A DNA stretch of 32,015 bases from an uncultured delta proteobacterium (GTDB lineage Bacteria; Myxococcota_A; Polyangia; Polyangiales; Ga0077539): NCBI GenBank assembly GCA_903860995.1, contig CAIOSS010000681.1, positions 1 to 32,015 on the forward strand, written 5' to 3'. Shown here piece after piece: positions 1 to 29,264 of this stretch (within the stretch, counting starts at the first letter, position 1; the number at the start of each line of letters is the position of its first letter). A model generated the notes under the pieces. That model was not told the origin of the DNA. It ran no database searches and worked only from the letters and a program-made list of their open reading frames with translations. Position numbers and translations under genes: made by a program.

Positions 1-474
1 ACCGCCCTCGCCGCCAAGGCGCTGATCCCGCGGCGCGCGGTGGAGAAGATCCGCGAGGGCTGCGGCAACATCGACGCCGCCACCGACTGCGTCGCGCTCA
101 ACGCGCTCTTCATCCGGCACGCCGCCGCCATCAAGGGCCGCCACCCGCTGGCCAGGTCCGACATCGTCGAGGCCGGCGACGTGGGCAATGCGCTGCTCAA
201 GATTCTCCAGCCGAAGCGCGCCCGCGCCCGCGCCACCTCCGCCGACGTCGCCCGCGCCGTCGACCACCGCGACCGACTCTGGACCCTCCTCGTGCAGCGC
301 TTCGAGGGCCCCCACGGACTCGAGCGCGCCGCCATGCACCTCTGGGGTCGCGACGACGCGCAGCACGTTGCGCCGCTGCTGTCGTTCACGCCGAACGCCG
401 CGCGCGAGGGCCGCCGCGAAGCCCACCGACGGACCTCTCCCTACGCCTGCTCCCACACGCTCGGGACCGCGTAG
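1..474 (+). CDS. Hypothetical protein, C-terminal part (open at the window edge)
   Basis: Frame is open from base 1 with GC3-rich codons (IDAATDCVALNALF...RDRLWTLLV). The 3' end overlaps the convergent toxin gene. Confidence 0.6.
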   Translation, partial: TALAAKALIPRRAVEKIREGCGNIDAATDCVALNALFIRHAAAIKGRHPLARSDIVEAGDVGNALLKILQPKRARARATSADVARAVDHRDRLWTLLVQRFEGPHGLERAAMHLWGRDDAQHVAPLLSFTPNAAREGRREAHRRTSPYACSHTLGTA

Positions 475-815
475 GCGGTCACCAGCACGTCGCGCGTGAC
501 GATCGTGAGCCCCTCGACGATCGCCTGCGCCACGAGGATGCGATCGAAGGGATCGCGATGGATCAGCGGCAGCGTGCGCACCAGCTCAGCATGCGCGACG
601 CCGACCGGCAGCTCGCGGAAGCCGTAGTCGGCGACCGCCTCGGCGAACGAGCCCCTCACGGCGATCTTGCCGAGCCCCGCCTTGATCGCCACCTCCCACG
701 CGCTCGCCGCGCTCACCAGCACTTCGTCGGCCGCGCGGATGCGCCGCACGACCTTCGCGGGCAACGTCCCCTCGTCCCACCAGAGGAAGGCGTGGGTGTC
801 GAGCAGCAGCCTCAA
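441..815 (-). CDS. vapC: PIN-domain VapC-type toxin
   Basis: Motifs RLLLDTHAFLWW, SAASAWEVAIK and HRDPFDRILVAQA...TRD. The TTG start at 815 overlaps the antitoxin stop (TTGA). Confidence 0.92.
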   Translation of the reverse strand: MRLLLDTHAFLWWDEGTLPAKVVRRIRAADEVLVSAASAWEVAIKAGLGKIAVRGSFAEAVADYGFRELPVGVAHAELVRTLPLIHRDPFDRILVAQAIVEGLTIVTRDVLVTAYAVPSVWEQA

Positions 816-1075
816 CGCGCGCTTCCCTCGAAGGCGGCGAGGACGTCGTCGGGCAACGGATCGTCGAAGTCGCTCGCGACCACGAAGCGCCCCTTGCCCT
901 TCCCGGGCACGCGCAGCTTCACCGCGCCATCCTCCAGCGGGACGAGGCGCGCCCGCGGCTTCCCGGCGCGCGCCAGGATGATGGTCTCCCCCGCGCTGGC
1001 CCGCTCGACCAGCTCCGGCAGATGGGCCTTGGCCTCGGCGATGTTGTAGACCGCTGCCTTCGTCCGATCGCTCAT
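812..1075 (-). CDS. Phd/YefM-family antitoxin
   Basis: YNIAEAKAHLPELVERASAGETIILARAGKPRARLVP...DFDDPLPDD. Translationally coupled to the PIN toxin. Confidence 0.92.
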   Translation of the reverse strand: MSDRTKAAVYNIAEAKAHLPELVERASAGETIILARAGKPRARLVPLEDGAVKLRVPGKGKGRFVVASDFDDPLPDDVLAAFEGSAR

Positions 1076-1108
1076 CCGCCGACGGTAGCAACCTGACCAC
1101 CCTGGTCA

Positions 1109-1508
1109 ATGCAGCCGCCGTCCGTCGCCGCGATCGCGCCGCTCCCTCCGCCCGCCTCTTCGGCCATCCCTCCCTTCGTGAACCTCACGCGCGCCGAGAC
1201 CGGCGCCCTCGCCGACCTCTGCGCCACCGTTCGCACCCGCTTCGGCCCATGCCTGCGCGAGCTCCGCCCTCTTCGGCTCGCGCGCCCGCGGTGAGGGCCA
1301 CGAGCACTCGGACCTCGACGTGCTCATCGTCGTCGACGACCTCGCCGGCTCCGGGGCTCGCGCGGTCGCGCAGGGCTGCGGCGACCTCCTCACCGCCTAC
1401 GACGTGCTCGTCTCGCCCTTCATCGTGAGCACCGAGCACATCACGCGCCTGCGCTCCCGCGAGCGCCTCATCGCCGCAGAGATCGCCCGCGACGCGGTGC
1501 CGCGGTGA
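1109..1508 (+). pseudogene. Minimal nucleotidyltransferase (MNT) with a +1 frameshift
   Basis: Removing one C at ~1267-1269 restores RELRLFGSRARGEGHEHSDLDVLIVVD, the GS...DxD motif of MNTs. Confidence 0.8.
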
Positions 1509-2886: not shown

Positions 2887-3010
2887 GTGCACAGGGCGTC
2901 CAATGAGGCACCCCGGCTGGCACGGATTCACCCGGGTTTACAGAGGATCCATGATCAGCAGGACACCGTCCCGCGAGCGCCGCCAAGAGCTTCCGGGACG
3001 CCGCCCTGGC
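2887..3010 (-). repeat. ~125-bp repeat copy 1 (putative non-autonomous IS91/ISCR-like module)
   Basis: GTGCACAGGGCGTCCAATGAGGCAC...CATGATCAGCAGGACACCGTC...GCCGCCCTGGC aligns end to end with copies 2-4. It is the most diverged copy. Confidence 0.93.
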
Positions 3011-3166
3011 CCGAGGCGCACATCGCCGCGTAGCGCAGCGCCGGGTCGAGGGTGACGCCGCCCCCGCGGGCGTCTGTGGGCGGACTCGCCGGGTCAGCGT
3101 CGGTCGTGGTCCAGCGGAGCGGTTCGTCCCGGACGAAGGTGAACCGACCAGGTCGTCGGGATGGGT

Positions 3167-4087
3167 TCAGTAGGCGTCGGGCCCGAGCCAGCGCACCCGT
3201 CCCTCCTTTTCGAGCACCGCGAGCATTCCGCTGCACGCGACGACCGCGCGCAACCCGCCGAGTTCGAGACGCACGCGCTGCCAGCGTCCGCGCTCGGCCC
3301 CCGTCGCGACGTCGAAGATGGCCACGATGCCGGTCGTGTCCCATGCCACAACGTGCCTCGCGTCCGGGGTCAGCCGCAGTGGGACGCTCGCAAACTCTGG
3401 GATCCGCAGCGTCGTGCGGGCTCCGTCTGGCGCGCGGACGATGAGGGCCCCATCGTCGCTGGTGCGCAGGATCAGCCATCCCAGATCATCCACGCTGACG
3501 AGCTCGCCACGCGGCAGACCGAGCTTCTCGCGCGCCGTGCCCCCGAGTGGAACCCGCTCGTGGTCTGGGTAGGCGTACTCGTAGGTCGCCGCGAGCGACC
3601 AGGGAGGCAGGACGTTCTGGCCCAGCGCGAGCTGACGTGGTGGCGCCAACGGGGCCGACAAGCGGAACTCCAGGAGCCGAGCGACCCGGTCGGTGGGGTG
3701 CCCGCCGCGCTCCTGGGTCTCGGCCAGCACGCGATCCGGTCCGGCGATGGCGGCGCACACGAAGACGTCGTTGGAGTAGGTGGTCGGCCAGCGGGCGCGC
3801 ACCGCCCCGTCGTCGAGCCCGCGCACTTGCAACTCGTGGTCGGCCCGCACGATGGCCGCGAGGCCGTGGCCCGCCGCGAGCGCCACGACGGGACCTTCGC
3901 CCGCGAAGGTTCGCGCGACCGCGGGGCCGCTCCACACGGCGAGGAGGCCGTCGGCGCTCACCGACACCAGCCGTGTGCCGTCCACCGCGAGAAATGCCGC
4001 GGGCCTCCCTCCAGGGGCGTCGCAACTGGCCTGCAACCCCAGAACGCCGTCCGTCTCTTCTCCCGCGCGAGTCACATGTCCTGCCAT
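3167..4087 (-). CDS. WD40/beta-propeller-like hypothetical protein
   Basis: Propeller-like strands LVSVSADGLLAVW, LRLTPDARHVVAWDTTGIVAIFDVATG and EKEGRVRWL. Start position uncertain. Confidence 0.6.
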   Translation of the reverse strand: MAGHVTRAGEETDGVLGLQASCDAPGGRPAAFLAVDGTRLVSVSADGLLAVWSGPAVARTFAGEGPVVALAAGHGLAAIVRADHELQVRGLDDGAVRARWPTTYSNDVFVCAAIAGPDRVLAETQERGGHPTDRVARLLEFRLSAPLAPPRQLALGQNVLPPWSLAATYEYAYPDHERVPLGGTAREKLGLPRGELVSVDDLGWLILRTSDDGALIVRAPDGARTTLRIPEFASVPLRLTPDARHVVAWDTTGIVAIFDVATGAERGRWQRVRLELGGLRAVVACSGMLAVLEKEGRVRWLGPDAY

Positions 4088-4390
4088 GGGGCGGACTCCA
4101 GCATGTCTCCGTGACAAAGGTCCAACCGACACCCGACTCGTGCGGAGTGCGGTGCACCCGGAAAACAAGGATCCGTGGGCCGAAGACGAGGACGGCGGGC
4201 CGTACCCCGACGACATCGGTCCAGAGGACTTCCCGTTTCCCGAGGAAGGCGCCGGACCGAAGGGCGCCGATCCCTCCATGACCTGGCCCGAAGATGCGGG
4301 CGAGCCGCCTGATCCTCCGCCGCCGCTCGCCGAGGACCGGGGCGATCCGCCAGTGCCGCCGGTTGGCTACGAGGGGCGACGCACCGGGCG

Positions 4391-5086
4391 GAGACCTTCC
4401 GCGCATGGCACTGGGCGCGGCGGTCGACGATCACGAGCGCGCTGGTGGTCGACCACGACTGGACCCGGCCGAGCTACGACCGCAACGCGGCGACCGGGTG
4501 CGAGGCCAACCTCCCGACCAGCCCGACGTACTGCGCCGCGTGCGGCACCGTGTGCCCGGCGGTCACCAACGGCGTCCCGGCGCGCACCGCGGGCGTCATC
4601 GGGTTCGCCTTCAACGCGACCGGCATCAGCGCGACGGCGTTTCGGGCGGACACCCACGGCAACCTCCTGCTCGGCACGACCGGCGGGTCGTCGTCGCTCA
4701 CCAACGCGTGCCCGCTCACGGGCACGTCGCGCGCGTTCACCATCGCCCCGCTGTGGGGCGACATGAACCTCAACCGCGTGCTCACGCCCGCCGGGCGGCA
4801 CCGCATCTGCACGGTGAACACTGGCAGCGCGCCGAGCCGCCAGTGGGCCGTCACCTGGGAGGAGGTGCCGTTCTACAGCTCCACCATCACCACGGCGGCG
4901 ACGTTCTCGGCGGTGATGTCCGAGGCCACGTCGGCGATCACCTTCCAGTGGGCGACCGGCTGCGTCTCGACCTCGGCGACCATCGGCGTGCAGGGCGCGA
5001 CCACCGCGCAGTCGACCACCGTCGGCACCTGCAACGTCGCGCAGAGCCTCAACGGCAACCAGGTCACGCTCACCCTCGTCCCCTGA
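4391..5086 (+). pseudogene. Chimeric fragment: short unrelated segment fused to the C-terminal part of a Cys-rich secreted protein
   Basis: ETFRAWHWARRSTITSALVVDHDWTRPSY (weakly VgrG-like) runs into DRNAATGCEANL..YCAACGTVC and a nidogen-like IAPLWGDM...VTWEEV domain. No signal peptide. Confidence 0.5.
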
Positions 5087-5205
5087 TCCCTGCGTCGGTG
5101 CACACCCTCTGAACGGCGTTCGTCCCCCACTGGACGGGCGCCGCGAGGGCGTGCAACGGTCGACGTCCGACAGTCCTGTCGCCGTTCGGGGAGCCCGTTC
5201 AGCCG

Positions 5206-6342
5206 ATGAAAAGAAGCGTCCTCTGGTTCGCGTTGCTCTTGCCCGCCTGCGATGCCGCGGGTGGAGACAGCATCTTCGTGGTCGAAGACGACGTGCCCGA
5301 AGAGGTCGACGCGGGCTTCGCGCCGATTGACACCGGCGTCGCCCGCGACACGGGCATCGTGCGCCCGACGGACAACGGCGTCGTGCCGCGCGACCTGGGC
5401 TCCCCCGTCGACGCGGGCTCCCCCGTCGACGCGGGCTTCCCCGTGGACAACGGGTTCGAGCGCGACGTGGGCTTCCCCGTGGACGTGGGCTTCCCCCGCG
5501 ACGCGGGCTTCGCGCTGGACACCGGCGTCACGCCCGGGCGCACCACCGTGATCGCCGGGCGGCGCTGCACCGTCGACGGCGACTGCTTCGGCGCCGCGTC
5601 CGCCCTCGCGTGCGTCACCACCATCGGCGGCAACGTGTGCACCGTCGGCGCGGGCTGCGACCAGGGCTCCGTCGCGGCGGAGGAGGCCGCCTGCGGGGGC
5701 CGCTACGCGACGTGCCTCGTGTACTCGACCCCGGCCACCGGGCCGCAGATCAGCCTGTGCAGCCGCGCGTGCGTCTCCGGGGCGCGCACGGAGGCCACCG
5801 GCGCGTGCCCCGCCAGCTCGATCTGCACCACCAACTGGCTGCAACTGCAGACCGCGCAGACCGAGGCGCCGGGCTGCCTGCCGTTCTGCACCTCCGACGC
5901 CGACTGCGCCGGGGCCCTCGCCGGCGACGCCTCCGTCATGCGCTGCAACACCCGCCTCGGGCGCTGCACGACGGCGCCCGTCAACCCCGCGCTGCGCGCC
6001 GACGGGTCGCTCTGCAACCCGATGATGATCCAGTCGACCGGCGTCGCGCAGTGCCGCGGCACGTGCTTCTCGCTCTCCACGGCGCGCCCGGCGGAGGGCC
6101 TGTGCGGGTCGTTCATCAACGTCCGCACCGCCCCTGCGGGGTGCACCGACGACCCGATGATGACCCCGCGCGGCCCGATGGGCGACGAGCTGGGCGTGTG
6201 CATCTTCCGCGAGTGCACCAACAACGTGGGCTGCACCGGCGGGTCGTACTGCGTGTACCCCGAAGACGCGTCGGGTGTGCGCCGCGACGCGGTGCCGTAC
6301 TGCGCCTACCGCACGACGCTCCAGCCGAGCGGCATTCCCTGA
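5206..6342 (+). CDS. Cys-rich lipoprotein with DxG linker repeats
   Basis: MKRSVLWFALLLPAC lipobox, repetitive PVDAG linker, then a Cys-rich C-terminal domain. Confidence 0.85.
   Translation: MKRSVLWFALLLPACDAAGGDSIFVVEDDVPEEVDAGFAPIDTGVARDTGIVRPTDNGVVPRDLGSPVDAGSPVDAGFPVDNGFERDVGFPVDVGFPRDAGFALDTGVTPGRTTVIAGRRCTVDGDCFGAASALACVTTIGGNVCTVGAGCDQGSVAAEEAACGGRYATCLVYSTPATGPQISLCSRACVSGARTEATGACPASSICTTNWLQLQTAQTEAPGCLPFCTSDADCAGALAGDASVMRCNTRLGRCTTAPVNPALRADGSLCNPMMIQSTGVAQCRGTCFSLSTARPAEGLCGSFINVRTAPAGCTDDPMMTPRGPMGDELGVCIFRECTNNVGCTGGSYCVYPEDASGVRRDAVPYCAYRTTLQPSGIP
5398..5526 (+). repeat. Degenerate 18-bp coding tandem repeat (G-F/S-P-V-D-x)
   Basis: GGCTCCCCCGTCGACGCG twice, then GGCTTCCCCGTGGAC variants, encoding GSPVDAGSPVDAGFPVDNGFERDVGFPVDVGFPRDAG. 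Confidence 0.8.
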
Positions 6343-6499
6343 TTCACGCGGCCTGGTCGCGGCGCGCGGCGGGCGGCGCGAGCGAGAGTCCCGTTCGAAT
6401 CCGGGGCGCCCGCCCACGCCGACGGTCGACGCCTCACCGGAGCGAAGCGACGGCGCGACCGCCCACGCCCACAGTCCCCGGCGTTTCGATCTGCGCCCG

Positions 6500-6603
6500 C
6501 GACGATCGGAGATGAGATCGAGCACGTAGTCTTCGGCCATCACGTCGGCGACGCGGCCGAGGCCGACGAGGCCGAGGGTGATCCAGACGGCGGTGAAGGC
6601 CGC
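6500..6603 (-). pseudogene. Fragment resembling a K+ channel inner helix
   Basis: Minus-strand AFTAVWITLGLVGLGRVADVMAEDYVLDLI with GC3-rich codons and no start of its own. Confidence 0.35.
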
Positions 6604-6610
6604 GCACCCC

Positions 6611-6703
6611 GGCGTGCGGGCCCGCGGGGTGACCCGGCGGTACCTCATGGGCGACGTGTCCATCGACGCGCTGCGCGGGGTCGACCTGAGCCTCGACGAG
6701 GGG
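6611..6703 (+). pseudogene. N-terminal fragment of a LolD/MacB-type ABC ATPase, cut by repeat copy 2
   Basis: GVRARGVTRRYLMGDVSIDALRGVDLSLDEG is the typical segment before Walker A. Walker A is absent and the repeat starts here. Confidence 0.8.
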
Positions 6704-6828
6704 GTGCATAGGGCGTCCAACGGGGCACCCCGGCCCGGCATGGATTCGCTCGGGTTTACTGAGAATCCATGATCAGCAGGACACCGTCCCGCGAGCGCTG
6801 CAAGGAGCTCCCTGGACGCCGCCTTGGC
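6704..6828 (-). repeat. ~125-bp repeat copy 2
   Basis: GTGCATAGGGCGTCCAACGGGGCAC...CATGATCAGCAGGACACCGTC...GCCGCCTTGGC. Confidence 0.95.
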
Positions 6829-6989
6829 GCGTGGCGGAGATCCACGTGCGCCGCTCGGTCGAGGCGGTCTTCGAGCAGAGCGTCGTCCTGCGCGAGATGA
6901 TCGAGGGCGGCCACATCGCCCTCGTGGGCGCGATGTACTCCGTGGAGACCGGCGGCATGGACCCATTCGATCAGAGCGCTCGTGCGTGA
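6829..6989 (+). pseudogene. C-terminal fragment of a beta-class carbonic anhydrase
   Basis: VAEIHVRRSVEAVFEQSVVLREMIEGGHIALVGAMYSVETG...stop matches the beta-CA C-terminus. The zinc-binding part is missing and the fragment begins at the repeat edge. Confidence 0.8.
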
Positions 6990-7377
6990 CCGCGGCAACG
7001 GCTGCGTCGCCAGGGTTCCGCGTTGACGGCGCGCGGTCGCTCCGCCCTCCGGAGGGGAGCGCGCGCCCACGTCGTCAGTCCCTGCCTCGCGGGCGGTGGC
7101 GTCGCCGGCTGCGTCGCTCATGATGGCGCTCGGCGAGATGCAGCAGTCGGGCGCGGTGCTGATCATCGAAGCGCCCGAGGGGGACCCCTCAACTCAAGGA
7201 GGTCGACTTCATCAAGTATCGCCTGCCGGACGGTGCGCCGTCTGCCACCGGAGCCTGAGCAGCACGGCCGTCGCGGGGCGGCGTTCCACGGTCGGGCCTG
7301 GACCGTTTCAAAGGCGTTGCTCGTCGCGCGGGGTGGCCCGCCGGCGTGGTGATAGGTTGGTGCGAAGGAGCCACCGC

Positions 7378-8754
7378 ATGCCCTTCCGCGCCTCGGTCAT
7401 CGGGTCACTCATCGCCCTGTGCGTCGCGTGTTCGTCGTCGGCCCCGATGGGCTCACCAGGGTGCCTCGCCGGCGCTTCGCTGGCCTGCGCCTGCACCGAT
7501 GGACGCGCGGGTGCCCAGGTCTGCGGCGACGACGCACGCCTCGGTCCCTGCTTGTGCACAAGCGGAGATGCGTCGCTCGCGCCCGCCGACGTCGCGTCGC
7601 CCGATGTCCCCGCGTCGCCCGATGTCCCCACGTCCCTCGCTGACGTGGTGACGCCCGATGTCCCCACGCCGCGCGACGCGCCTGCCGCCGATGTGCCGAC
7701 GTCGTCGACGCGGCCGGGCTTCCTCCACACGCAGGGCAGCGCGATCGTCGACGCGACCGGGCGCACGGTGCGGCTCACCGGGCTCTCGTGGTTCGGCTTC
7801 GAGACCTCGAACTACGCGCCGCACGGGCTCTGGCGGCGCTCCATGAACGCGATGCTCGATCAGGTGCGGACGCTCGGGTACAACGTCATCCGCGTCCCCT
7901 GGTGCAACCAGATGCTCGACGCGGGCAGCACGCCCAACGGCATCGACTTCGCCCAGAACCCCGACCTCCGCGGGCTCACCGCCGTCGAGGTGCTCGACCG
8001 CTTCATCGCCGCCGCGCGGGCGCGCGGACTCAAGGTCATCCTCGATCGGCACCGGCCCGATGCGAGCGGACAGTCCGATCTCTGGTACACGGGCGCGTAC
8101 GACGAGGCGCGCTGGATCCGTGACTGGGTCATGCTCGCGCGGCGCTACCGCGACGATCCGACGGTGATCGGCGTCGACCTCCACAACGAGCCGCACGGCG
8201 CGGCCACCTGGGGCGACGGCAACCTGGCGACGGACTGGCGCCTCGCGGCCGAGCGCGCGGGCAACGCCGTGCTCGCGGTGAACCCCGACCTGCTCATCGT
8301 CGTCGAAGGCATCGAGCGCTACGCCGGAACCTCCTACTGGTGGGGCGGCAATCTCCGCGGTGCGCGCACGGCCCCGGTGCGCCTCACGGTGCCCGGGAGG
8401 GTGGTGTATTCGCCGCACGACTACCCGTCCTCGGTGTCCGCGCAGGCGTGGTTCGGCGCGGCGGACTACCCCGCCAACCTGCCGCGCGTGTGGGGCGACG
8501 CGTGGGGATACCTCGCCGTCGAGGGCCTCGCGCCGGTCTGGATCGGTGAGTTCGGCACGCGCCTCGCGACGACCTCCGACCGGCAGTGGCTCACCGGGAT
8601 GGTGTCGTACGTGCGCGCGCACGACCTGAGCTTCGCGTTCTGGTGCCTCAACCCCAACAGCGGAGACACGGGCGGCATCCTCCAGGACGACTGGCAGACG
8701 GTGAACACCGCCCAGCAGTCGGCCCTGATGCCCTTGCTCGCTCCGCCGCTGTAG
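7378..8754 (+). CDS. Lipoprotein with a GH5 endoglucanase (cellulase) domain
   Basis: Lipobox CVAC, Cys module and D/P-rich linker. GH5 motifs GLSWFGFET, LDRHRP, HNEPH (acid/base), YSPHDY, IGEFG (nucleophile) and FWCLNPNSGDTGG. Confidence 0.93.
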   Translation: MPFRASVIGSLIALCVACSSSAPMGSPGCLAGASLACACTDGRAGAQVCGDDARLGPCLCTSGDASLAPADVASPDVPASPDVPTSLADVVTPDVPTPRDAPAADVPTSSTRPGFLHTQGSAIVDATGRTVRLTGLSWFGFETSNYAPHGLWRRSMNAMLDQVRTLGYNVIRVPWCNQMLDAGSTPNGIDFAQNPDLRGLTAVEVLDRFIAAARARGLKVILDRHRPDASGQSDLWYTGAYDEARWIRDWVMLARRYRDDPTVIGVDLHNEPHGAATWGDGNLATDWRLAAERAGNAVLAVNPDLLIVVEGIERYAGTSYWWGGNLRGARTAPVRLTVPGRVVYSPHDYPSSVSAQAWFGAADYPANLPRVWGDAWGYLAVEGLAPVWIGEFGTRLATTSDRQWLTGMVSYVRAHDLSFAFWCLNPNSGDTGGILQDDWQTVNTAQQSALMPLLAPPL

Positions 8755-8840
8755 GGTCGCTCGAGCGCACAGCGGCACCTTCTGGTCGTGGCGCGACGCC
8801 ATGTTCGCCGCCGCTGCCGCGCTCTGCCGCACGATCGCGG

Positions 8841-10037
8841 TCAGCGCTCCGACGCCGCCGCGGCCTTCGTCGCGTGCGGGAGGCCTGGCATGCCGACGGA
8901 GGGCGCCCACCGGGACTTCAACCGCAGCACCGGCGACTCGAAGAAGCGAAACGTGAACGACGCCACCGCCAGCGTGGCGAGCACCCACGCCGGGACCAGC
9001 AGCTCGAGCCCTGCGCGCGGGATCGCGAGCGGGCGCAGCAGCGCTGCGAGCGCGGTGCCCACGAGCACGTGCCAGATGTACATGCCGTAGCTGACGCGGC
9101 CGATGTGGCGCACGAGCGGGCGCGCGCACACGCTGCGGAGGAGGCCCTGCGGGTCTGTCGCGACGACCACGAAGACGCCGCCGCAGAGGGCGATCACGGT
9201 GTACCCGAGGGCCGAGAAGACCGCCCCGCCGCGCGCGGGCTCCCAGATGCCGAAGGGGGTCGCGACGAAGACCGCGAAGGTCGCGAGGGCCACCGCCGAC
9301 CATCGGGCCGCGGCGGCGCGCACGCGCTCCCACGCCGGCGCGGAGGTCGCCTGCACCGCGAGCCAGGCGCCCAGCGCGAGCCCGTCGAGGCGAAACGGGG
9401 TGAGGAGGTAGACGCCGTTCTCGCCCGCGTACGGCAGCGCGACCCAGCGGAGCAGCGGCGAGAGCGCCACGATGGCGACGCAGAGTCGCTCCAGCCCGCG
9501 GGCAGACAGGCCGCGCGCCGCGAAGGGCCAGAGGAGATAGAAGTGCTCCTCGATGGCGATGCTCCAGAGGATCGCCGCCGCCATGCCGGGGTAGTGCCCG
9601 ATGGCCTCGGGCACGTTGCCGAGGAAGCACAGCACCCGGGGCACGTCGTCGTCGTGGAGGTTGATGAGGTGCGCCGTGAGGTGCCACGCGTCGCGGTGCG
9701 CCTGCAGCGTCAGCAGCAGACCCACGTAGAGGAAATACAGCGGCATGATGCGCAGCGCGCGGCGGATCCAGAACGCGCTCAGCCCCTCCGTGGCGCGACC
9801 CTTCAGGAGGGTCCCGGTGACGAGGAAGCCGCTCAGCACGAAGAAGAGGTCGACGCCCACCCAGGCGCCGCGGCTCCAGCGCTCGAGCGCGGTGACGTAG
9901 TCCATCGGCAGCAGCGCCGGGGCGTGGAAGACCATCACCAGCAGCACCGCGACGGCACGCAGCGCGTCGAGGCCGGGCAGGTCACCGATGCGGCCCTTCG
10001 AATCCAGCGCAGGGAGGGACGTCGGCTCGGCAGCCAT
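8841..10037 (-). CDS. Acyltransferase-3 (OafA/YrhL-like) membrane O-acyltransferase
   Basis: LDALRAVAVLLVM, GVDLFFVLSGFLVT, FWIRRALRIMPLY, WSIAIEEHFYLLWP and GRVSYGMYIWH. Confidence 0.93.
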   Translation of the reverse strand: MAAEPTSLPALDSKGRIGDLPGLDALRAVAVLLVMVFHAPALLPMDYVTALERWSRGAWVGVDLFFVLSGFLVTGTLLKGRATEGLSAFWIRRALRIMPLYFLYVGLLLTLQAHRDAWHLTAHLINLHDDDVPRVLCFLGNVPEAIGHYPGMAAAILWSIAIEEHFYLLWPFAARGLSARGLERLCVAIVALSPLLRWVALPYAGENGVYLLTPFRLDGLALGAWLAVQATSAPAWERVRAAAARWSAVALATFAVFVATPFGIWEPARGGAVFSALGYTVIALCGGVFVVVATDPQGLLRSVCARPLVRHIGRVSYGMYIWHVLVGTALAALLRPLAIPRAGLELLVPAWVLATLAVASFTFRFFESPVLRLKSRWAPSVGMPGLPHATKAAAASER

Positions 10038-10141
10038 CGAGGTCGGAGCGTAGTCGACGCGCCCGCGCGCCGAAAGGCGCGGCCGCCTTGAGAGAAATGT
10101 GAGCACTGTTCACTTTTCGGACGTGATTCACGAAGAGGTGG

Positions 10142-10240
10142 ACGGCGAAGGCGGCGGGCGGCGCGCGCACCCAGGCGCGGCGGCTCGACGAGATCACCAC
10201 CGCGGCGTCCGACATCGTGCGCGACGAGGGCATCGTCCCG
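10142..10240 (+). pseudogene. Possible N-terminal fragment of a TetR-family regulator
   Basis: ARTQARRLDEITTAASDIVRDEGI resembles TetR helix 1. The HTH does not follow. Confidence 0.25.
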
Positions 10241-10368
10241 GGACGCTCCCGCCAACGCCCGCGGGAGCGCGTACTGCAGATGACAGGCGATCCGGTAGCT
10301 GGAGCGGGTCCGTGCCGACACGGCTCTCGCAGCACTGCGCCGTCGCGTCGCCTGATCCCCCGGAAGGG

Positions 10369-10840
10369 TCAGCGCGTGCGGTCGTCCTGCCAGAGCAGCG
10401 TGCAGCTCGCCCGCGTGAAGTCGGTGCACCGCCCGTCGCCGCCGCCCGCGAAGCCGCCGTCGGGCGAGCAGATCAGCTCGCAGTCCGACGAGATCAGCGA
10501 GCTGAACTGATCGCAGCACTGCGGCGGGAGGTAGAAGACCGTCGCGCCGCGGTACGTGCACCGGTAGATCGAGCGGGGAGGGTTTCCCACGGGCTGACTC
10601 GCGGCGGTCGTGATGAGCGTCTGGACGCACGCGGGCGTCGCCGGGGGGGGCGTCGGCGGGCGTCGGCCGGTCCTCCGTGGCGGTGTCCGCCGTGGCGGTG
10701 TCCGCCGGAACGTCGGCGGCCCCGGCGTCGACGCAGCTCATGCGCCCACCCGAGTCGTTGGGGCACACCGCCACGGGGCCAACACCGCCGCCATCAGAGC
10801 AGGCGACGAACCCGACACCCAGCACGAAGAGCCACCGCAT
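10369..10840 (-). pseudogene. Lipoprotein with a small Cys-rich domain (DUF6970-like), frameshifted in a G8 run
   Basis: MRWLFVLGVGFVAC lipobox. A shift at G8 (10643-10650) joins it to TPACVQTLI..NPPRSIYRCTYRGATVFYLPPQCCDQFS...CSPDGGFAGGGDGRC. Confidence 0.7.
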
Positions 10841-10900
10841 CTGTCCACGCGACTCCCCTCCGCGGCGACGCGTCCTGTCGGCGGTCAGCGCCCCGCATCA

Positions 10901-10964
10901 GCGCTCGACGTCTTCGGCATGGAGCGCTGCTTCTTCGCGTCGAACTCCCCCAATGGACAAGGTC
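10901..10964 (+). pseudogene. Internal fragment of an amidohydrolase-2 family gene
   Basis: ALDVFGMERCFFASN(S)P-MDKV resembles the conserved FGxxRxxFxSNFP motif. Confidence 0.6.
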
Positions 10965-10965
10965 G

Positions 10966-11042
10966 GCGGTGGCGAGCGGCCGGGTGAGCGTGCTGCCCGA
11001 CGGCAACGTGGCGTACCGGGTGAAGTCGTCGCGCAGCGCGAG
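10966..11042 (+). mobile_element. Internal fragment of an IS91-family (Y2/HUH) transposase
   Basis: AVASGRVSVLPDGNVAYRVKSSRSAR resembles the segment after the catalytic Y..RP motif of IS91/ISCR transposases. It ends at repeat copy 3. Confidence 0.6.
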
Positions 11043-11169
11043 GCGCATAGGGCGTCCAATGGGGCACCCCCCGCCCGGCACGGATTCGCTCGGGTTTACA
11101 GAGAACCCATGATCAGCAGGACACCGTCCCGCGAGCGCTGCCAGAAGCGTCCCTGGACGCCGCCTTGGC
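11043..11169 (-). repeat. ~125-bp repeat copy 3
   Basis: GCGCATAGGGCGTCCAATGGGGCAC...CATGATCAGCAGGACACCGTC...GCCGCCTTGGC. Confidence 0.95.
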
Positions 11170-11734
11170 CACGGTGATCTTCGCCGTGTGCTCGATGATC
11201 TCCGTGCGCATCACGCCGGTCATCGGGTCGTCGCAAAGCACGACGCTGCCGTGCCGCGCCAGCATGAACGCCTCGCACCCCGTGGCCACCACCGCCGCCA
11301 CCGCGTCGGGCACGTCGGAGGTCGTCGGCGACGCGTACGGCACCGTCGGCACGCGGCCCATCGCGAAGAGAATCTCCGGCACCACCGGCGGGTCGAGCCC
11401 CCAGCCCGCCGCCGTGAGCCCCACCGCGGCCGGCGGGTGCGCGTGCACCCCGCACGCGAGCCCCGGCCGCTGCGCGTAGAGCGCGAGGTGCAGCTTCAGC
11501 TCCGTCGAGGCCTTAGCCCCCGCGGATGACCCGCCCGGCCAGGTCGAGCAGCACCAGGTCGCCCTCGCGGAGCATCCCCTGGTGCACGCCCGACGGCGTG
11601 CAGAGCAGCCGGCCGTCACCGACGCGCGCGGACAGGTTGCCGTCCGTGGGCCCGATCAGCCCGCGCTCATAGAGCACCCGCGCGGCGTCGCAGAGGGCCT
11701 TGCGCAACGCGGGCTCGGTGACGGGTGGGCGCAT
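11170..11734 (-). pseudogene. Class II aldolase/adducin family gene, frameshifted and 3'-truncated by repeat copy 3
   Basis: DGNLSAR, TPSG, STELKLH, VHAHPP and ARHG motifs. Frameshift at ~11517-11521. The frame runs into the repeat after EHTAKITVA. Confidence 0.85.
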
Positions 11735-11749
11735 CGCGCGGCACCTCGA

Positions 11750-13717
11750 TCACAACTCCGTGGCGGCCTCGGTGTCGGCGCCAGACCCGCCCCGCAGGCG
11801 CATCGCGAGCACCAGGATGACCACCATGAGCCCGCCCTGCAGGTCGCTCACATACTCCGGCAGCGCGACGCCCGCGGCGGCCCCCGCGAGGCTCAGCACC
11901 ACCCAACCGAGCATCGCGCGGTGCACCATCATCGCGCCCACCGCGGATGACACCGCCGTCAGCAGCATGTCGTTGACGAGCACCGCGTGCACCGGCGTCT
12001 CGAGCTGCGCCGCGAACACCCGGTTGACCAGCGAGGCCACCGCGATGGCCACGAAGGCCCCGACCACCCGGTGCCCGATGCTGTTCTGGAGCAGCCGGCG
12101 GCGGGCCAGCACGATCATCGCGGTGAGCACCGCCACCACGATGCCCTCGTACAAGATCAGGTCGTCGTGCGTGAGCTGGCCCGGACCGCCCGGCTGCAGG
12201 TGCGGCACCGCGGCCAGCACCGCGCCGAACACCAGCACCACTGAGAAGAAGGCGGTGCGCGAGCCCGCGCCGACGGCGAGGTCCTGGTCGCGCTCGAGCT
12301 GACGCAGGCGGTCCTGCGCCGCGCGGCGCGCCTCGAGCCGGGTGCCGAGGGCGTCGAGCTTCGCCGCCAGGTCGGGCCGGTCGCCGCCGATCTCCGCCAG
12401 CGTCGTGCGCGCGGCGTCCTCGCTCTCGTTCCGTAGATTCACCTCGAACATGCGCTCGAGGCAGACGCCCATGCCCGCCCGCGCGTCCGGGTTGTCGGGC
12501 CACTCGCGCAGCGCCTGCGCGAACCCGAACCGACACTCTGTCAGCAGCGTGTGCAGGCGCCGCCGATCGTCCGGCGTCTCCGCGGCGGCGAGCGGCCCCA
12601 GGGCCTCCGCCAGGCGGGCCGCGGCGGTCGCGCCCAGGGCCGTCGACGCGCGGTGCCGGAGGTAGTCGGTCACCGCCTGGCGAAACGCCAGCACCGTCGG
12701 GTACCGCTCCGACGGGTTCGCCCGCGTGGCCCGGTTGCAGATCGTCGCGAGCTCCGTCGGGACGTCGTCGCCGTAGACGTACGGCTCCGAGCGCAGCGCC
12801 GCGACCACGACCAGCGAGAGCGTCGCGCCGCTGTGCCGCGGCACTCCGGTGACCACGCAGTGCAGCGTCGCGCCGAGGAGGTAGACGTCCGAGCGGGCGT
12901 CCATGGAGTCGGCGCCGTCGCCGATCATCTCCGGCGCGAGGTAGCCGGGGGTGCCCGCCACCGCGGCGCCCTGCGTCCGCGCGCAGCCGTCGGGCCCGGT
13001 GCGCAGCGCGATGCCCCAGTCGCAGAGGTACACCTCCCCGTACTCGCCGATCATCACGTTCTCGGGCTTGATGTCCCGGTGCAGCACGCCGTGGCGGTGC
13101 GCGAAGTGCACGGCGTTGCAGACCTGCACCAGCACCTCGAGGTGCGCCACGAGGCGGTCGTCCGAGAAGGTCTCGAGGCGCGACCAGTACGGGTGCGCCG
13201 CGTCGCGCACGAGGTCGTACCAGGCCACCCCGACCACCCGCTTCATCACCAGCACCGGGAGCCCGTCCGGGCCGACGCCCAGCGCGTGCACCGGGACGAT
13301 GTTCGGGTGCTCGAGCGAGCCCATCAGCACCGCCTCGCCCATCAGCGCGTTGGCGGCGACGAGCCCGCCGTCGGGCCGCGCGATCTTCACCGCGACGTCG
13401 CGCTCGAGCGACTGCTGCCAGGCGCGATGTACGGTCCCCATGCCGCCCTTGCCGAGCACGCCGAGCAGCACGATGTCGGGGTCGGAGTCGAGCGCCGCAT
13501 CGACCGGTCGAGGGACCACGGAGAGCATCGGGAGCCGTTGGCCGCTCGGCGACGCCGGCGCGGTCTCCGACGAGGACGCCGGCGCGGGGGCCATCGACAC
13601 GAAGCGCCGCGTCGCGCTGTGGGCGTCGAAGGGCGCGTCGGCGAGGCCCAGCGCGCGCAGAGACTCTTGCAGCCCGCCCGCGTGAACCGAACCGCCGTCA
13701 CCAGACCCTTCGTGCAT
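11750..13717 (-). CDS. Hanks-type Ser/Thr protein kinase with C-terminal membrane helices
   Basis: LGKGGMG, VAVK, HPNIVPVH, HRDIKPEN, DWG, GTPGYLAPE and SDVYLLG, followed by several hydrophobic helices. Start approximate. Confidence 0.93.
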   Translation of the reverse strand: MHEGSGDGGSVHAGGLQESLRALGLADAPFDAHSATRRFVSMAPAPASSSETAPASPSGQRLPMLSVVPRPVDAALDSDPDIVLLGVLGKGGMGTVHRAWQQSLERDVAVKIARPDGGLVAANALMGEAVLMGSLEHPNIVPVHALGVGPDGLPVLVMKRVVGVAWYDLVRDAAHPYWSRLETFSDDRLVAHLEVLVQVCNAVHFAHRHGVLHRDIKPENVMIGEYGEVYLCDWGIALRTGPDGCARTQGAAVAGTPGYLAPEMIGDGADSMDARSDVYLLGATLHCVVTGVPRHSGATLSLVVVAALRSEPYVYGDDVPTELATICNRATRANPSERYPTVLAFRQAVTDYLRHRASTALGATAAARLAEALGPLAAAETPDDRRRLHTLLTECRFGFAQALREWPDNPDARAGMGVCLERMFEVNLRNESEDAARTTLAEIGGDRPDLAAKLDALGTRLEARRAAQDRLRQLERDQDLAVGAGSRTAFFSVVLVFGAVLAAVPHLQPGGPGQLTHDDLILYEGIVVAVLTAMIVLARRRLLQNSIGHRVVGAFVAIAVASLVNRVFAAQLETPVHAVLVNDMLLTAVSSAVGAMMVHRAMLGWVVLSLAGAAAGVALPEYVSDLQGGLMVVILVLAMRLRGGSGADTEAATEL

Positions 13718-13882
13718 CGCCGTCCGCGTGAATGTCGCACGGCGACGCCCGCCGTGTCGCCTGTGCGCGCACCTCGTCCGGAAGGACGTCCGGCGCGCGC
13801 GGGCGTTGCGTGGGCGCGAGGCCGTCGCCCATGGTGGGGAAGGTCGCGGGCTCATGGCCCGACGCGAAAGGTACGATCGCTG

Positions 13883-14077
13883 ATGGCGCGCGAAGACCGC
13901 GTACGGTTCCCAGGGCGAACCCTGTTTCTCACCGAAGACCCGTCGCTGCTGGCGCAACAGCTCCAGGGGGTCGACCTCGCGTGGGACCCGGCGCGCCCGC
14001 TCGTCGACAACATCTCCACCGACGAGATCACCCCCGGGTGGGTCTGCTACCACTACGATGAGACCCTCGCGGAGTAG
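13883..14077 (+). pseudogene. N-terminal fragment of an aconitase/isopropylmalate dehydratase-like gene, cut by repeat copy 4
   Basis: MAREDRVRFPGRTLFLTEDP...DNISTDEITPGWVCYHYDETLAE carries the swivel-domain DNISTDxIxP motif. The stop coincides with the repeat edge. Confidence 0.8.
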
Positions 14078-14201
14078 CGCATAGGGCGTTCAATGGGGCA
14101 CCCCCGCCCGGCACGGATTCGCTCGGGTTTACAGAGAACCCATGATCAGCAGGACACCGTCTCGCGAGCGCTGCCAAGAGCTCCCGGGACGCCGCCTTGG
14201 C
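14077..14201 (-). repeat. ~125-bp repeat copy 4
   Basis: GCGCATAGGGCGTTCAATGGGGCAC...CATGATCAGCAGGACACCGTC...GCCGCCTTGGC. Confidence 0.95.
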
Positions 14202-14388
14202 GATCCAGACGGCGGTGGGGTTCGTGGGCACCGTCGACTCGCGCACGACCATCACGCCGCGCTTCGCGTCGACCACGCCGGGCGCCGCGGAGACCCGCCG
14301 CGTCGCGCAGAACTGGGTCGATCAGGCGCTGAAGTCATCCGTGTTCCTGCCGACGGTCTCGCTGTCGCTGGGGTACCGGCTCTTCTGA
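14202..14388 (+). pseudogene. C-terminal fragment of a probable outer-membrane beta-barrel protein
   Basis: IQTAVGFVGTVDSRT...FLPTVSLSLGYRLF-stop has a terminal beta-signal pattern. It begins at the repeat edge with no signal peptide. Confidence 0.6.
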
Positions 14389-14465
14389 CGGGCGTCTGGC
14401 CGGGTGAAGCCGCTTGCGCGCGGCGCCGAGTCGATGTCAGCAGTCAGTGCCTCCCACCCCGTTAG

Positions 14466-15254: not shown

Positions 15255-15584
15255 AGGGCGGGCGAGACGGTGCAGTTTCGGCCGCGAGGCCACAGCATGG
15301 TCGGCGAGATCTCGAGCGGCGACCTCTGCACGGTGGCGGTGCTCGCGGCGGGCGACATCGTCCTGTGCCGCGTGCACGGCAACCAGTACCTGCACCTGGT
15401 GAAGGCGATCCAGGGCGAGCGCTTCCAGATAGGCAACAACCGCGGCGGCATCAACGGCTGGATCACCCGTCGACAGATCTTCGGTCGCCTGCTCGCGGTC
15501 GAGCCGGGACGCGCGCGCGCCGGCTCGCCATCGCGCCTCGCGGCACACCGCGAGGCCTCGGGCGCTTCGCCAAGGCGCGGTTGA
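15255..15584 (+). pseudogene. S24/S26 peptidase-like small protein, probably 5'-truncated
   Basis: RAGETVQFRPRGHSM...GDIVLCRV...YLHLV...IGNN. The frame starts directly after the methyltransferase stop with no clear native N-terminus. Confidence 0.55.
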
Positions 15585-15697
15585 ACGAAGCCGCGGAGCC
15601 TCCGGGCGGCCGGCAGTCGTCGATGTGGGAAGAGGGTTGGCCATCGATCCACGGCTGCACCCGCCGCGGGGCAGTCGATGGCGGCCCCCACGGGCCG

Positions 15698-15990
15698 CTA
15701 CCCGAGGCGCTTACCCTCCTCGGTATTCAGCAGGTCCAGCGGGCTGCGCAGCGTCGCGCGACGCGCCTCGGAGAGGTGCGTGTAGCGGGCCGTGCTCTGG
15801 AGCGACCGATGCCCCAACAGGATCTGCACGGTGCGCAGGTCGGTGCCGATCTCCAGCAGATGGGTCGCGAACGCGTGACGCGGGAGGTGGGGATAGACGC
15901 GGAGCTTGAGGCCCGCGCGCTCGACCGCCGCCCGCAGGGAGAGCTTCACCGCCGCGCGCGTCAGCGCATTGCCCCGGGCCGGAACATAGA
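15698..15990 (-). pseudogene. C-terminal remnant of a tyrosine recombinase/integrase
   Basis: [13 protein letters not shown] (HxxR), LLGH, TARYTH (catalytic Tyr) and SPLDLL. The N-terminal part with the first Arg box is missing. Confidence 0.9.
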
Positions 15991-16210
15991 GACTGGCGAA
16001 CAGCAACTTCCCCTTCGGACGACTCTCTCGCCAGTAGGTGCGGAGCGACTACCTTGTCTGCGATTTTCGCCCTGCTACTCGTCATCGGGAGTTCCCGACC
16101 CATCGTGGGAGGAGTTCGCTTGCACCGGGCGATGGGTCACCGTAGGCACAGAGGGTGTTGTGCTGCCCTGAGGGGTCACATCCCTTCGTTTTATCGGAGG
16201 CTAAGGCGCG

Positions 16211-17850: not shown

Positions 17851-19551
17851 TTAGCGAGCGAGCGCGGCCCCGAAGCCAGGGGTCGCGTCGTCGAAGGTGA
17901 CATCGGGCGCAGGGCCCGGACCTCGGCCCAGGCGACCGAAATACACATGCACTCTCCCCGGTTGGGGCGATCGTGGAGAGGTCACCGCGAGGTCGGGAAG
18001 GCCGTCGCCGTTGACGTCTCCCGGCCCCGCGACCGCCGCGCCGAAGGCCACCTCGCCCATCGGCGGCAACGCCACGCCCACAGGCATCTCGAAGCGCGGC
18101 AACTCCGTCTCCGGGAGCGTCGTCGGCGATGACCCCGGCGGGCTCGCGCGACCGAAGAACACCGCGCCGCAGTGGCCCGCGATGAGGCTCGCGACGTCGT
18201 CGAGGCCGTCACCGTTGATGTCACCCAGGGGCGTGGTGGCGGCCTCGAGGCTCATGAGCGCCCCCGCCGGGAGCACGCACGGCAAGGGGTTCGGCTGCGC
18301 GCTCGCCCACCCGCCGACCCCGCGCGTCGCAGGCCCTCGCAGCACGAGCGAACTGCCCGCGGCGAGCCCCCCGAGCAGCAGGTCGGCGACGCCGTCGCCG
18401 TCGATGTCTCCCGCGGGATAGAGCCTGCGCCCGGCGCTCGCGAGCCCGACGCGCGTGGACTTGATCGCCCCGAAGACACCGCTCGGAGATCCTGCAAAGA
18501 CCATCACGAAGCCGCGGCCGGCGTTGGTCGGGTCGCCGGGATCGGTGTAACCCGGTAGTCCTACCGCGAGGTCGGTGTACCCGTCGCCGTCGCGGTCGCC
18601 CGCGCTCGCGAGCGCCATCGTGGGCTCGCGGCTCGACCCCGCCCCCAGCAGCGCGCCCGTCGGCCGCGCGGGCGTCCCCGTCGCAGCGCCGTGAAAGATC
18701 AAAACCCGCGTGTGCGTCGCGGTTTGCGACGACACGGCGATGTCGCCGTAGCCATCGCCGTCGAGGTCGCCCACGCCCGCCGCCGCGGCGCCGAGCACCT
18801 CGTCGGGCTGCGTGGCGGTGAGCGTCACGTGGCGGGTGTAGCGCCCGCTCGCATCGGCAAAGAGCACGTACACCCGCGACGGCAGGTCGGTGACCATCAC
18901 CTCCTGTCGCCCGTCGTCGTCGGTGTCGCCTGCGACGGCGACCGCCTCGGCGAAGCGAGGCCCCGCCCCGTCGGGCGCGAAGGTCACCGCCCGGGTGCCC
19001 GTCCGTGGATCTACGATCACAAAGGCACCGCGCGCCGCGCCGACCGTCGCCGCGGGGAGCGGCGCGCCGACGAGAAGCTCCGTCTGCCCGTCGCCGTCGA
19101 GGTCAGGCAGCGCACGATCGCCCGCGGTGATCGAGCCTGGCGCACGGGCGCTGGGCACTTCGAACCACCGCGGCGTCGTCGCCATCGCGCCGCGCGCGAG
19201 CGACCACCAGTAGCGCCCCGGAGCCATGGGCGTAGGAGCGGTCCACGCGCAGAAGCGCACGCCGCGCACGAAGGGGCCGGTCTCCTCGCGCGCCGCGTCG
19301 CCCGCGGGACAATCCCGCGTGCGGCAGATGCGCAGCGTCGCCGTGCAGCCCTGGTCGTCGATCCACGTGAGCTTCGGTCGCGCCGCGCTGAGCAGGGTGG
19401 CGGTCGGCGGTTGCACTGCCGCGAGGGGCCGCAAAGCAGGTCGCGGCGGTGCGTCGATGGAGGCGTCCGCGGAGGCGGGGCGAAGGGTCCAGCTGTCAGG
19501 TACGCAGCCCAGCACGACCGTCAACAGCACCGGACTCAAGACGACCTTCAC
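17851..19551 (-). CDS. FG-GAP repeat (integrin-alpha-like propeller) lipoprotein
   Basis: VVLGC lipobox; repeated GDxDGDGxxD and FGAAVAG motifs. Confidence 0.88.
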   Translation of the reverse strand: MKVVLSPVLLTVVLGCVPDSWTLRPASADASIDAPPRPALRPLAAVQPPTATLLSAARPKLTWIDDQGCTATLRICRTRDCPAGDAAREETGPFVRGVRFCAWTAPTPMAPGRYWWSLARGAMATTPRWFEVPSARAPGSITAGDRALPDLDGDGQTELLVGAPLPAATVGAARGAFVIVDPRTGTRAVTFAPDGAGPRFAEAVAVAGDTDDDGRQEVMVTDLPSRVYVLFADASGRYTRHVTLTATQPDEVLGAAAAGVGDLDGDGYGDIAVSSQTATHTRVLIFHGAATGTPARPTGALLGAGSSREPTMALASAGDRDGDGYTDLAVGLPGYTDPGDPTNAGRGFVMVFAGSPSGVFGAIKSTRVGLASAGRRLYPAGDIDGDGVADLLLGGLAAGSSLVLRGPATRGVGGWASAQPNPLPCVLPAGALMSLEAATTPLGDINGDGLDDVASLIAGHCGAVFFGRASPPGSSPTTLPETELPRFEMPVGVALPPMGEVAFGAAVAGPGDVNGDGLPDLAVTSPRSPQPGRVHVYFGRLGRGPGPAPDVTFDDATPGFGAALAR

Positions 19552-19684
19552 TGCGCGGCACCTTCTCAGGTCGGTGCGAGAACTTCCACTGGCAACACCA
19601 CCCGGTGCGAGCGGTCACTCTCCCGCCGGGGCTGCTGGGCATCGGATCACCGCCCAGGGCGCCCTTCCGCGCAGGTCCGCGGGG

Positions 19685-20125: not shown

Positions 20126-20230
20126 GACTTCTTCCTGGTGCCAACGGCACCCGTCGAAAGATGCTGACTGTAATGTATCCGATACACCTTGAATGGCCTG
20201 TACCGAGAACCTCCTGGCACTCGCCCGCCG

Positions 20231-24883: not shown

Positions 24884-25018
24884 GAGCACCTCGGTGAGGC
24901 CCTGGTTGCGGTCCGCGGCAAAACCCTGTTGGGGTGCCGCGCCACGGAGAGGCTGAGCGAGGTAAGCCAGCGCCGTCGCCGACGGCAATGTCGCGCCGAT
25001 ATCACCGGCGCGGTGCCA

Positions 25019-29076: not shown

Positions 29077-29264
29077 GTCTTCCTATCTGGGCTGACACAT
29101 CGATGCGGCCTCGAGGTCGCTCCGCCGTGGCGCAACCGTCGATGGAGCGCCCGTCGATTCAACGCGAGCCGTGGCGCGTGGCGCAATGTCACCCCGATAT
29201 CACCCGCTCCCCTTCGACGAGCGGACGCGTGAAGGCTACGTTCCTAACGTGGAGGTGGTTTAGG

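Follow-up and report, generated by a model that had tools for sequence, protein, structure and literature searches.

We examined a stretch of 32,015 nucleotides (hereafter the window) from an uncultured delta proteobacterium, contig CAIOSS010000681.1, in which four copies of a repeat of about 125 nucleotides lie in the same orientation between genes and pieces of genes. The contig (C681) is part of a metagenome-assembled genome (MAG; here G000) of 7.04 Mb in 1467 contigs, 82% complete and 3.3% contaminated, and the G+C content along the window is 66-75% up to 20 kb. An earlier note, made from the letters of the window alone, had reported the four repeats and proposed that they are a non-autonomous rolling-circle module that captures host DNA and stacks it into an array. 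We find that the repeat is very probably a solitary copy of the origin end (oriIS) of an insertion sequence (IS) of the IS91/ISCR type. The copies in the window, designated R1 to R4, together with a further partial copy, are as follows.

2887..3010, plus strand: putative mini oriIS element R1 (repeat search, alignment, nhmmer, covariance model)
6704..6828, plus strand: putative mini oriIS element R2 (repeat search, alignment, nhmmer, covariance model)
11043..11169, plus strand: putative mini oriIS element R3 (repeat search, alignment, nhmmer, covariance model)
14077..14201, plus strand: putative mini oriIS element R4 (repeat search, alignment, covariance model; CTTG at 14196-14199)
10227..10320, minus strand: fifth copy, partial and inverted, covering positions 29-121 of the hidden Markov model (HMM) of the repeat (HMM search)

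Repeat finding in the window returned one four-member family (D6) of about 124 nucleotides, at 2888-3011, 6706-6829, 11046-11169 and 14079-14202, all on the plus strand, with start spacings of 3818, 4340 and 3033. A covariance model built later placed R1-R4 (124-127 nucleotides, all co-oriented) at exactly the coordinates given in the earlier note, so that this part of its account was reproduced by repeat finding, alignment and covariance model alike. The borders of the four copies are sharp in a MAFFT alignment, their identity over match columns is 0.87-0.96 and their nhmmer E-values range from 6e-38 to 2.5e-42; the similarity among them is far beyond chance. The set of copies was incomplete in the earlier note, which overlooked the inverted fifth copy. 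It lies inside a block (10205-10968) that two related genomes, G002 and G004, have at 90-93% identity.

An HMM made from R1-R4 matched 68 places in G000, and one made from 42 full copies matched 99, namely 49 full copies, 33 with only the 5' part, 14 with only the 3' part and 3 others; these counts are rough, the MAG being fragmented and many copies lying at contig ends. Several subfamilies can be recognised. Each element starts with an invariant G, three subfamily-specific bases and ATAGG, and ends in ...GACGCCGCCTTG, usually followed by GC. The 124-nucleotide element has no open reading frame (ORF) of its own and is intergenic in most cases. The absence of a target duplication, noted earlier for the four copies in the window, was borne out more widely, since direct repeats of 2-6 nucleotides at the flanks of 44 G000 copies were not above shuffled pairing (k = 2-6, three registers of the 3' border by two of the 5' border, each compared with shuffled means). 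When the genomes of the order were searched with the model at E <= 1e-10, 38 matches were found in G000, 17 in G008 and 4 in G004, and none in the other 88 of the 91 genomes, which include G007 of this genus and six other genomes of the same family. A weaker BLAST match to the repeat occurs in one sister genus.

Two further observations concern the ends of the element. At four places in G000 (C505:5381, C121:3180, C1071:13847 and C979:360) the last 13-20 nucleotides (...TCCCGGGACGCCGCCTTGGC) are tandemly doubled, as if termination or joining had occurred twice. In addition, a second miniature family of about 190 nucleotides is present in G000 in some ten near-identical copies (C75:6067-6250 and 11007-11141, and on C44, C491, C980, C1261, C894 and C865). 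It has the 5' motif G-NNN-ATAGG...CCAACGGGGCA in common with the 124-nucleotide repeat and differs at its 3' end (...GGAGCTCGCTG), and the near-identity of its copies suggests recent activity.

For the identification of the parent element we turned to the transposase genes of G000 and its relatives. There are nine matches to Y2_Tnp (IS91-family transposase) in G000, of two lineages and mostly broken or cut by contig ends, while full-length tnpA genes encoding 504-540 amino acids are found in relatives. The full-length TnpA of one relative carries Zn_Tnp_IS91 and Y2_Tnp only, with no helicase domain, and among NCBIfam models it is most similar to ISCR clade Ia, at 297 bits, which is below the strict cut-off of that model. 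In four full-length elements of relatives, the DNA downstream of tnpA matches positions 2-114 of the repeat HMM, antisense to the gene, with E-values of 2e-10 to 4e-16. We then considered 25 loci encoding relatives of the matching transposase, from MAGs labelled Myxococcales, Polyangiales or Deltaproteobacteria. Fifteen of them have repeat-like sequence antisense to tnpA, with its outer end 114-274 nucleotides past the gene; the other ten are distant (39-54% identity), stop at a contig end, have a match only elsewhere in the locus (3 loci) or plainly lack it (one). The match is whole-length in three loci (L076, L080 and L085; HMM positions 2-125, E 3e-22 to 3e-25), and their inner flank is the body sequence that follows CGCCTTG in C808, C1159 and C1160. 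The earlier note had suggested looking for a copy beside a complete IS91-family transposase gene, and such copies do exist.

Aligned ends place the border of the miniature precisely. Full elements run on, as ...GCTG or CTTG followed by ACCGA(T/A)TCCAACGC..., exactly where the miniature stops, and a read contig with IS body sequence directly after position 14199 gives the same stop point. In the tnpA direction the element finishes on its outer side with ...CGCCTATCCCC or ...TTTCCTATCC, which resembles the conserved oriIS end of ISCR1 quoted in PMC13023784. Because of the antisense match past tnpA, the body sequence that continues beyond CTTG and the ISCR1-like outer terminus, we assign the repeat, with high but not complete confidence, as a solo oriIS-end miniature of an IS91/ISCR-type rolling-circle insertion sequence. 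With no ORF of its own and with partner transposase genes in the genome and in relatives, it is predicted to be a non-autonomous IS91-family derivative, as the earlier note had proposed. The assignment is in keeping with what earlier work reports of such ends: for IS91, 89 bp of one end and 82 bp of the other suffice in cis, and no duplication is made (PMC13181058), and IS801 gives right-end miniatures of 229, 360 and 679 nucleotides that end at a tetranucleotide, and also moves adjacent DNA (PMC3189936). The 3' end of the repeat is CTTG. On the 5' side, 64 of 74 flanks have a purine as their last base, a T-Y-S-R pattern is weakly visible, and the borders are ambiguous by 1-2 nucleotides.

Other derivations of the repeat were considered and rejected. 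Its last 15 nucleotides do not come from a terIS, as the X-lineage element finishes on its terIS side with (GGTGGCGGCGG)n, which does not match. A classical miniature inverted-repeat transposable element (MITE) is not indicated, there being no target duplication and only a 10-nucleotide imperfect inverted repeat (CCAACGCGGC / GCCGCCTTGG), seen in the alignment, that is subterminal and offset by 13 nucleotides from the 5' end. Derivation from a repetitive extragenic palindrome (REP) and its associated transposase (RAYT), or from IS200/IS605, was discarded since the three Y1_Tnp matches lie on contigs without copies of the repeat and the element is not palindromic. The exclusion of CRISPR, an integron and a simple MITE by the earlier note stands.

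The flanks of the repeats and the genes between them are as follows.

6578..6703, plus strand: N-terminal fragment of an ABC ATPase, which R2 interrupts with its 5' edge just ahead of the Walker A region
6828..6989, plus strand: C-terminal fragment of a beta-carbonic anhydrase, beginning at the 3' edge of R2
7005..7086, minus strand: terIS-side leader fragment of an IS91-type element, 88% identical to C793:1114-1193
7645..8754, plus strand: GH5 cellulase-family gene, cargo between R2 and R3 (Pfam)
8841..10106, minus strand: Acyl_transf_3 gene, cargo between R2 and R3 (Pfam)
10966..11043, plus strand: 78 bp from within an IS91-family tnpA, running up to the 5' edge of R3, 96% identical to C139
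11173..11755, minus strand: class II aldolase without its last ~30 codons, to the right of R3; intact copy on C1445, 90% identical
11750..13717, minus strand: Ser/Thr protein kinase gene, apparently intact cargo (Pfam)
13802..14076, plus strand: start of an aconitase-family gene (~65 codons) with its upstream region, broken off where R4 begins
14202..14404, listed on the plus strand without regard to coding direction: ~210-bp piece of a gene with a fuller copy on C905, to the right of R4; no Pfam family
15541..15677, plus strand: oriIS-proximal fragment of a second IS91 lineage, 88% identical to C1077:5644-5780

Every testable junction in the window joins DNA that is not contiguous in intact homologues, and in no case does the other flank continue the first. 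To the left of R2 stand the first ~40 codons of the ABC ATPase, whose homologue (L092:149-892, minus strand) scores 4e-34 with ABC_tran, and to the right the last 53 codons of the carbonic anhydrase. The latter match Pro_CA over profile positions 115-155 of 156 (E 2e-4, under the gathering score) and have intact counterparts in G001:C11 and G005:C164 at 96-97% identity. Both sides of this junction, and likewise the transposase piece and the truncated aldolase at R3, had been read in this way from the letters alone, as had the GH5, acyltransferase and kinase genes that Pfam now confirms. At R4 the aconitase-family piece was correctly recognised, but the label of an outer-membrane protein tail for the right side was not supported by any Pfam family, and the window lacks the left part of the gene cut there. 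The aldolase and aconitase pieces correspond to opposite ends of one locus that is intact on C1445 (aldolase, plsB-like, gpsA-like and aconitase-family genes; 87-90% identity), and between them the window has the kinase gene instead. The flanks of R1 gave no Pfam match in 10 frames, nor did 20 frames around R1, the left of R3 and the right of R4. At the 3' junctions the intact homologue has 1-2 bases (GC, GT or AC) in common with the last two bases of the repeat, and the border is therefore ambiguous by 1-2 nucleotides.

The first 16.5 kb of the window (1-16.5 kb) is a mosaic, in that adjacent segments map to different contigs in every relative; several of its boundaries lie away from the repeats, for instance at 10968, about 11755, about 13800 and 15667. 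Across G000, 22 of 76 flanks of full copies have a second copy elsewhere without the repeat, compared with 125 of 1500 random windows. The orientation of genes relative to neighbouring repeats is not constant in the window.

Clusters of co-oriented copies are not peculiar to the window. Adjacent copies on one contig of G000 are co-oriented in 22 pairs and opposite in 8. In three relatives with 21, 37 and 29 matches there are 29 adjacent pairs less than 6 kb apart, where by our arithmetic about 1.6 would be expected under random scatter, and 25 of these are co-oriented and 4 opposite. On G005:C164 a full-length element is followed by six plus-strand copies in 16 kb, on G005:C31 four minus-strand copies occupy 4.4 kb, and on G001:C205 three copies lie within 1.9 kb; with further arrays in G008 and G004, co-oriented arrays are present in at least six genomes. 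The ORFs in the spacers of the relatives' arrays are mostly without a Pfam family. Copies on the same contig resemble each other more (0.869) than copies on different contigs (0.772), which none of 2000 permutations matched.

We reasoned about the origin of the arrays mainly from two cases in which a repeat and its flank occur a second time. R3 and a second copy on C901 differ over their first ~40 nucleotides and are then ~98% identical through the flank into the aldolase, and the copies on C1390 and C1134 have in common only the last ~20 nucleotides of the repeat and the right flank. Such variable breakpoints inside the repeat fit homologous exchange between copies and do not fit transposition of whole units; they are the signature of recombination. 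Recombination was the very scenario that the earlier note had set against its own proposal. In an independent sample (run X2), a contig also links the 3' end of a repeat (position 6828, represented by 47 nucleotides) with position 4477, at which the window has one of its mosaic boundaries, and this joint suggests a further copy, a tandem duplication, a circle of 4477-6828 or another structural variant in that population.

We favour the following account, to which, taken as a whole and including the origin of the miniature, we give a probability of roughly 60%. Each miniature would be the terminal ~124 nucleotides of an oriIS end, lying downstream of the gene for a Y2 transposase of the HUH type, antisense to tnpA and stopping at CTTG. 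The transposase of resident full-length elements may nick at the 5' edge of the repeat, peel off one strand and terminate at CTTG, and the miniature would in this manner multiply in trans, to about 100 copies in G000, with copies gathering in same-direction clusters within dispensable mosaic regions. Co-oriented neighbours of close kinship would then recombine with each other and with copies elsewhere, a step to which the two chimeric copies lend partial support, whether neighbours lose the DNA between them or segments bounded by repeats are excised and re-integrated. As an outcome, nearly every copy would join originally non-adjacent DNA, including pieces of genes that are intact elsewhere. 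Now and then replication may run past CTTG and take downstream DNA along, in the manner of IS91, IS801 and ISCR elements, and this would probably be a further contribution.

Several observations weigh against this account of local multiplication and recombination. No empty site was found for the 38 G000 copies searched, for the 24 relatives' copies searched in G000 or in the queried regions of the genus, and simple insertion of a miniature is therefore never seen directly; on G008:C3 one flank matches up to the junction and the other does not. The left flanks lack the canonical IS91 targets, CTTG or GTTC, at their ends. The chimeric copies are only two and could be strain variants in a fragmented MAG with 3.3% contamination. 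The spacers in the relatives' arrays are mostly one or two ORFs, which resembles ordered cassettes more than decay, and recombination alone leaves unexplained the entry of diverged copies of a housekeeping locus (87-90% to C1445).

The leading alternative is that the arrays were built by rolling-circle read-through, starting at the repeat as oriIS, proceeding past CTTG into downstream DNA and stopping at a ter-like site or the next CTTG, so that units stack head to tail at a used target. A solo oriIS with a weak terminator is the expected substrate for carrying downstream DNA, and precedents exist in the literature: for ISCR1, the oriIS region of ~100 bp is said to be enough to mobilise adjacent DNA (PMC13023784), and IS801 captured 290-1431 nucleotides of adjacent DNA in vivo (PMC3189936). 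All five right junctions that have an intact homologue (5/5) begin at the 3' edge of the repeat, whereas the left side is never contiguous; a 789-bp carbonic-anhydrase block common to G001 and G005 begins 4-5 nucleotides past the 3' end of the repeat in G005; and the enrichment of duplicated DNA at the flanks and the recurrence of co-oriented arrays given above agree with read-through as well. However, we found no whole repeat that had been duplicated together with its cargo into another context, both repeat-plus-flank blocks break inside the repeat, the right ends of the cargo (GGGG, CGAG and AGTA) are not CTTG-like, and many mosaic boundaries of the window, including those listed above, are away from repeats. 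Capture and stacking, as the earlier note had it, is no more than plausible, and as the main builder of the arrays we regard it as possible yet doubtful and rank it below multiplication and recombination.

A bolder form of the idea is that the family is a rolling-circle counterpart of the integron in a genus of uncultured myxobacteria, in which solo oriIS miniatures bracket genes and gene pieces as cassettes and the DNA between co-oriented copies is copied from the first origin to the next CTTG and set down beside another copy. Among 19 blocks common to different genomes (>=250 bp and >=85% identity), none is bounded by repeats on both sides and one (C848 vs G001:C205) abuts the repeat edge in both genomes. 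We hold this version to be unlikely, and put it forward tentatively as a conjecture. If true, arrays would grow, exchange cassettes between strains or species and shuffle exon-like gene fragments, and would be the first bacterial analogue of non-autonomous Helitrons.

It is very improbable that the repeats are themselves recombination sites of a cassette system, of the integron attC or CALIN (integron cluster without an integrase) kind, used by a tyrosine recombinase. Their length of ~125 nucleotides, co-orientation, spacers of mostly one or two ORFs in relatives and 10-nucleotide imperfect inverted repeat might suggest as much, as might a Phage_integrase fragment at 15698-16006. Nevertheless, at 15 of 25 loci this sequence forms the end of an element that encodes a Y2 transposase, and the only nearby recombinase is a C-terminal integrase fragment belonging to a separately repeated sequence. 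The attC core site has the consensus GTTRRRY, which the 3' end of the repeat does not fit. A consensus fold (alifold, 19 copies) reaches only -4 kcal/mol with 10 pairs, none of the ten compensatory, and the breakpoints of the two repeat-plus-flank blocks fall at different positions of the repeat, with no single crossover point.

The last two explanations are the least probable of all. An assembly artefact, in which the assembler joined unrelated contigs through a common repeat, might be feared in a MAG of 1467 contigs with many copies at contig ends, and none of the 32 Logan contig pieces listed (617 more exist) spans a whole repeat with both flanks; but R1-R4 differ by 4-13% from each other, and differ also from other copies, which leaves few long exact overlaps, several edges between flank and repeat are covered by contigs from four runs that belong to three studies (R1 left X1 and right X2, R2 left X1 and X2 and right X1 and X3, R4 right X2 and X3), and relatives with far better assemblies (40 to about 230 contigs) show the same architecture. 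A function for the host, as a structured small RNA, a leader, a terminator or a REP-like regulatory site, would suit the mostly intergenic positions and one short hairpin with variants that covary by eye in the alignment, but the repeat has no match in Rfam at gathering thresholds, single-sequence folds are no better than shuffles (z-scores of -0.6 on both strands), no compensatory pairs support the consensus fold, the orientation relative to neighbouring genes varies in the window and the repeat cuts coding sequence. A promoter or leader reading, in which CAT or CAC at the 5' end of R1-R3 would be minus-strand start codons, was also rejected, gene orientation around the copies being inconsistent.

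We noted some other features of the window. At 15541-16050 the oriIS-proximal fragment of the second lineage abuts the C-terminal Phage_integrase fragment (15698-16006), and the pieces within this region are each repeated on several G000 contigs and in relatives at 85-93% identity. A stretch of ~70 nucleotides at 6402-6480 has many matches in relatives, where it is tandem with a period of ~47 nucleotides (e.g. G004:C62:36065-36317 and G002:C14:12183-12307). The PIN-domain ORF at 441-1109 (minus strand) is probably a mobile toxin-antitoxin module, because its DNA identity of 95% to G001:C71 is far above the 77-83% of adjacent segments. Very large ORFs at 17851-29082 (minus strand), with FG-GAP repeats and many Cys-rich units, are the source of most other repeat families in the window, and 18-nucleotide tandem repeats with hexapeptide periodicity lie at 5370-5531 and 7584-7676, within ORFs 5206-6342 and 7096-8754.

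According to PMC6218425, no ISCR element has ever been shown by experiment to transpose, and the cis requirements of IS91-type ends are hitherto derived from a few laboratory constructs. With ~100 natural, diversified solo origin ends whose subfamilies track their parent elements, a minimal functional oriIS may be definable by comparative sequence alone, and the copies could serve directly in a trans-mobilisation assay. Arrays of one orientation, set among unrelated genes and pieces of genes, may show how rolling-circle elements shuffle bacterial DNA. If they were built by read-through, they would represent gene capture by a rolling-circle transposon at genome scale in bacteria; if by recombination, a high-copy miniature would turn a chromosome region into a zone of cassette exchange. 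Either way, the family would explain why such regions break metagenome assemblies and why fragments pile up of genes that have intact copies elsewhere.

A full-text literature search, with subscription journals and ISfinder outside its reach, returned IS801 miniatures and ISCR/IS91 biology but no high-copy solo-oriIS family or chromosomal array. In PMC3189936 the IS801 miniatures likewise derive from the right (ori) end of an IS91-family element, stop at a tetranucleotide, make no duplication and were moved in trans by the transposase; unlike the present family, they arise anew from full copies and are rare in genomes, whereas the repeat in the window belongs to a self-standing, diversified family with ~100 copies per genome, subfamilies and arrays, found in one genus among those searched. 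With ISCR and IS91 elements, as portrayed in PMC13181058, PMC6218425 and PMC13023784, the family has in common a Y2 HUH transposase with an IS91 zinc domain, an oriIS downstream of tnpA with an end like ...CCTAT(A/C)CC, the lack of a target duplication and an association with variable captured genes, but by those accounts an ISCR unit carries tnpA and occurs once or a few times on a replicon. The flank preference of the repeat in the window, moreover, is not CTTG or GTTC. Integron attC arrays and CALINs offer a likeness in their co-oriented repeats of about 60-140 nucleotides between mostly single genes, and differ in that our repeat is a transposon end and not an imperfect palindrome, no intI adjoins it and exchange points within it vary. 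Lastly, eukaryotic non-autonomous Helitrons are similar by analogy, in HUH rolling-circle mobilisation in trans, absence of duplication, asymmetric ends and gene fragments. Helitron ends carry 5' TC and 3' CTRR with a hairpin. These motifs are not present in the repeat, and membership of the group was rejected given that TnpA here has only Zn_Tnp_IS91 and Y2_Tnp, with no helicase and hence no RepHel; the resemblance to Helitrons, judged by analogy, would be one of function and not of membership.

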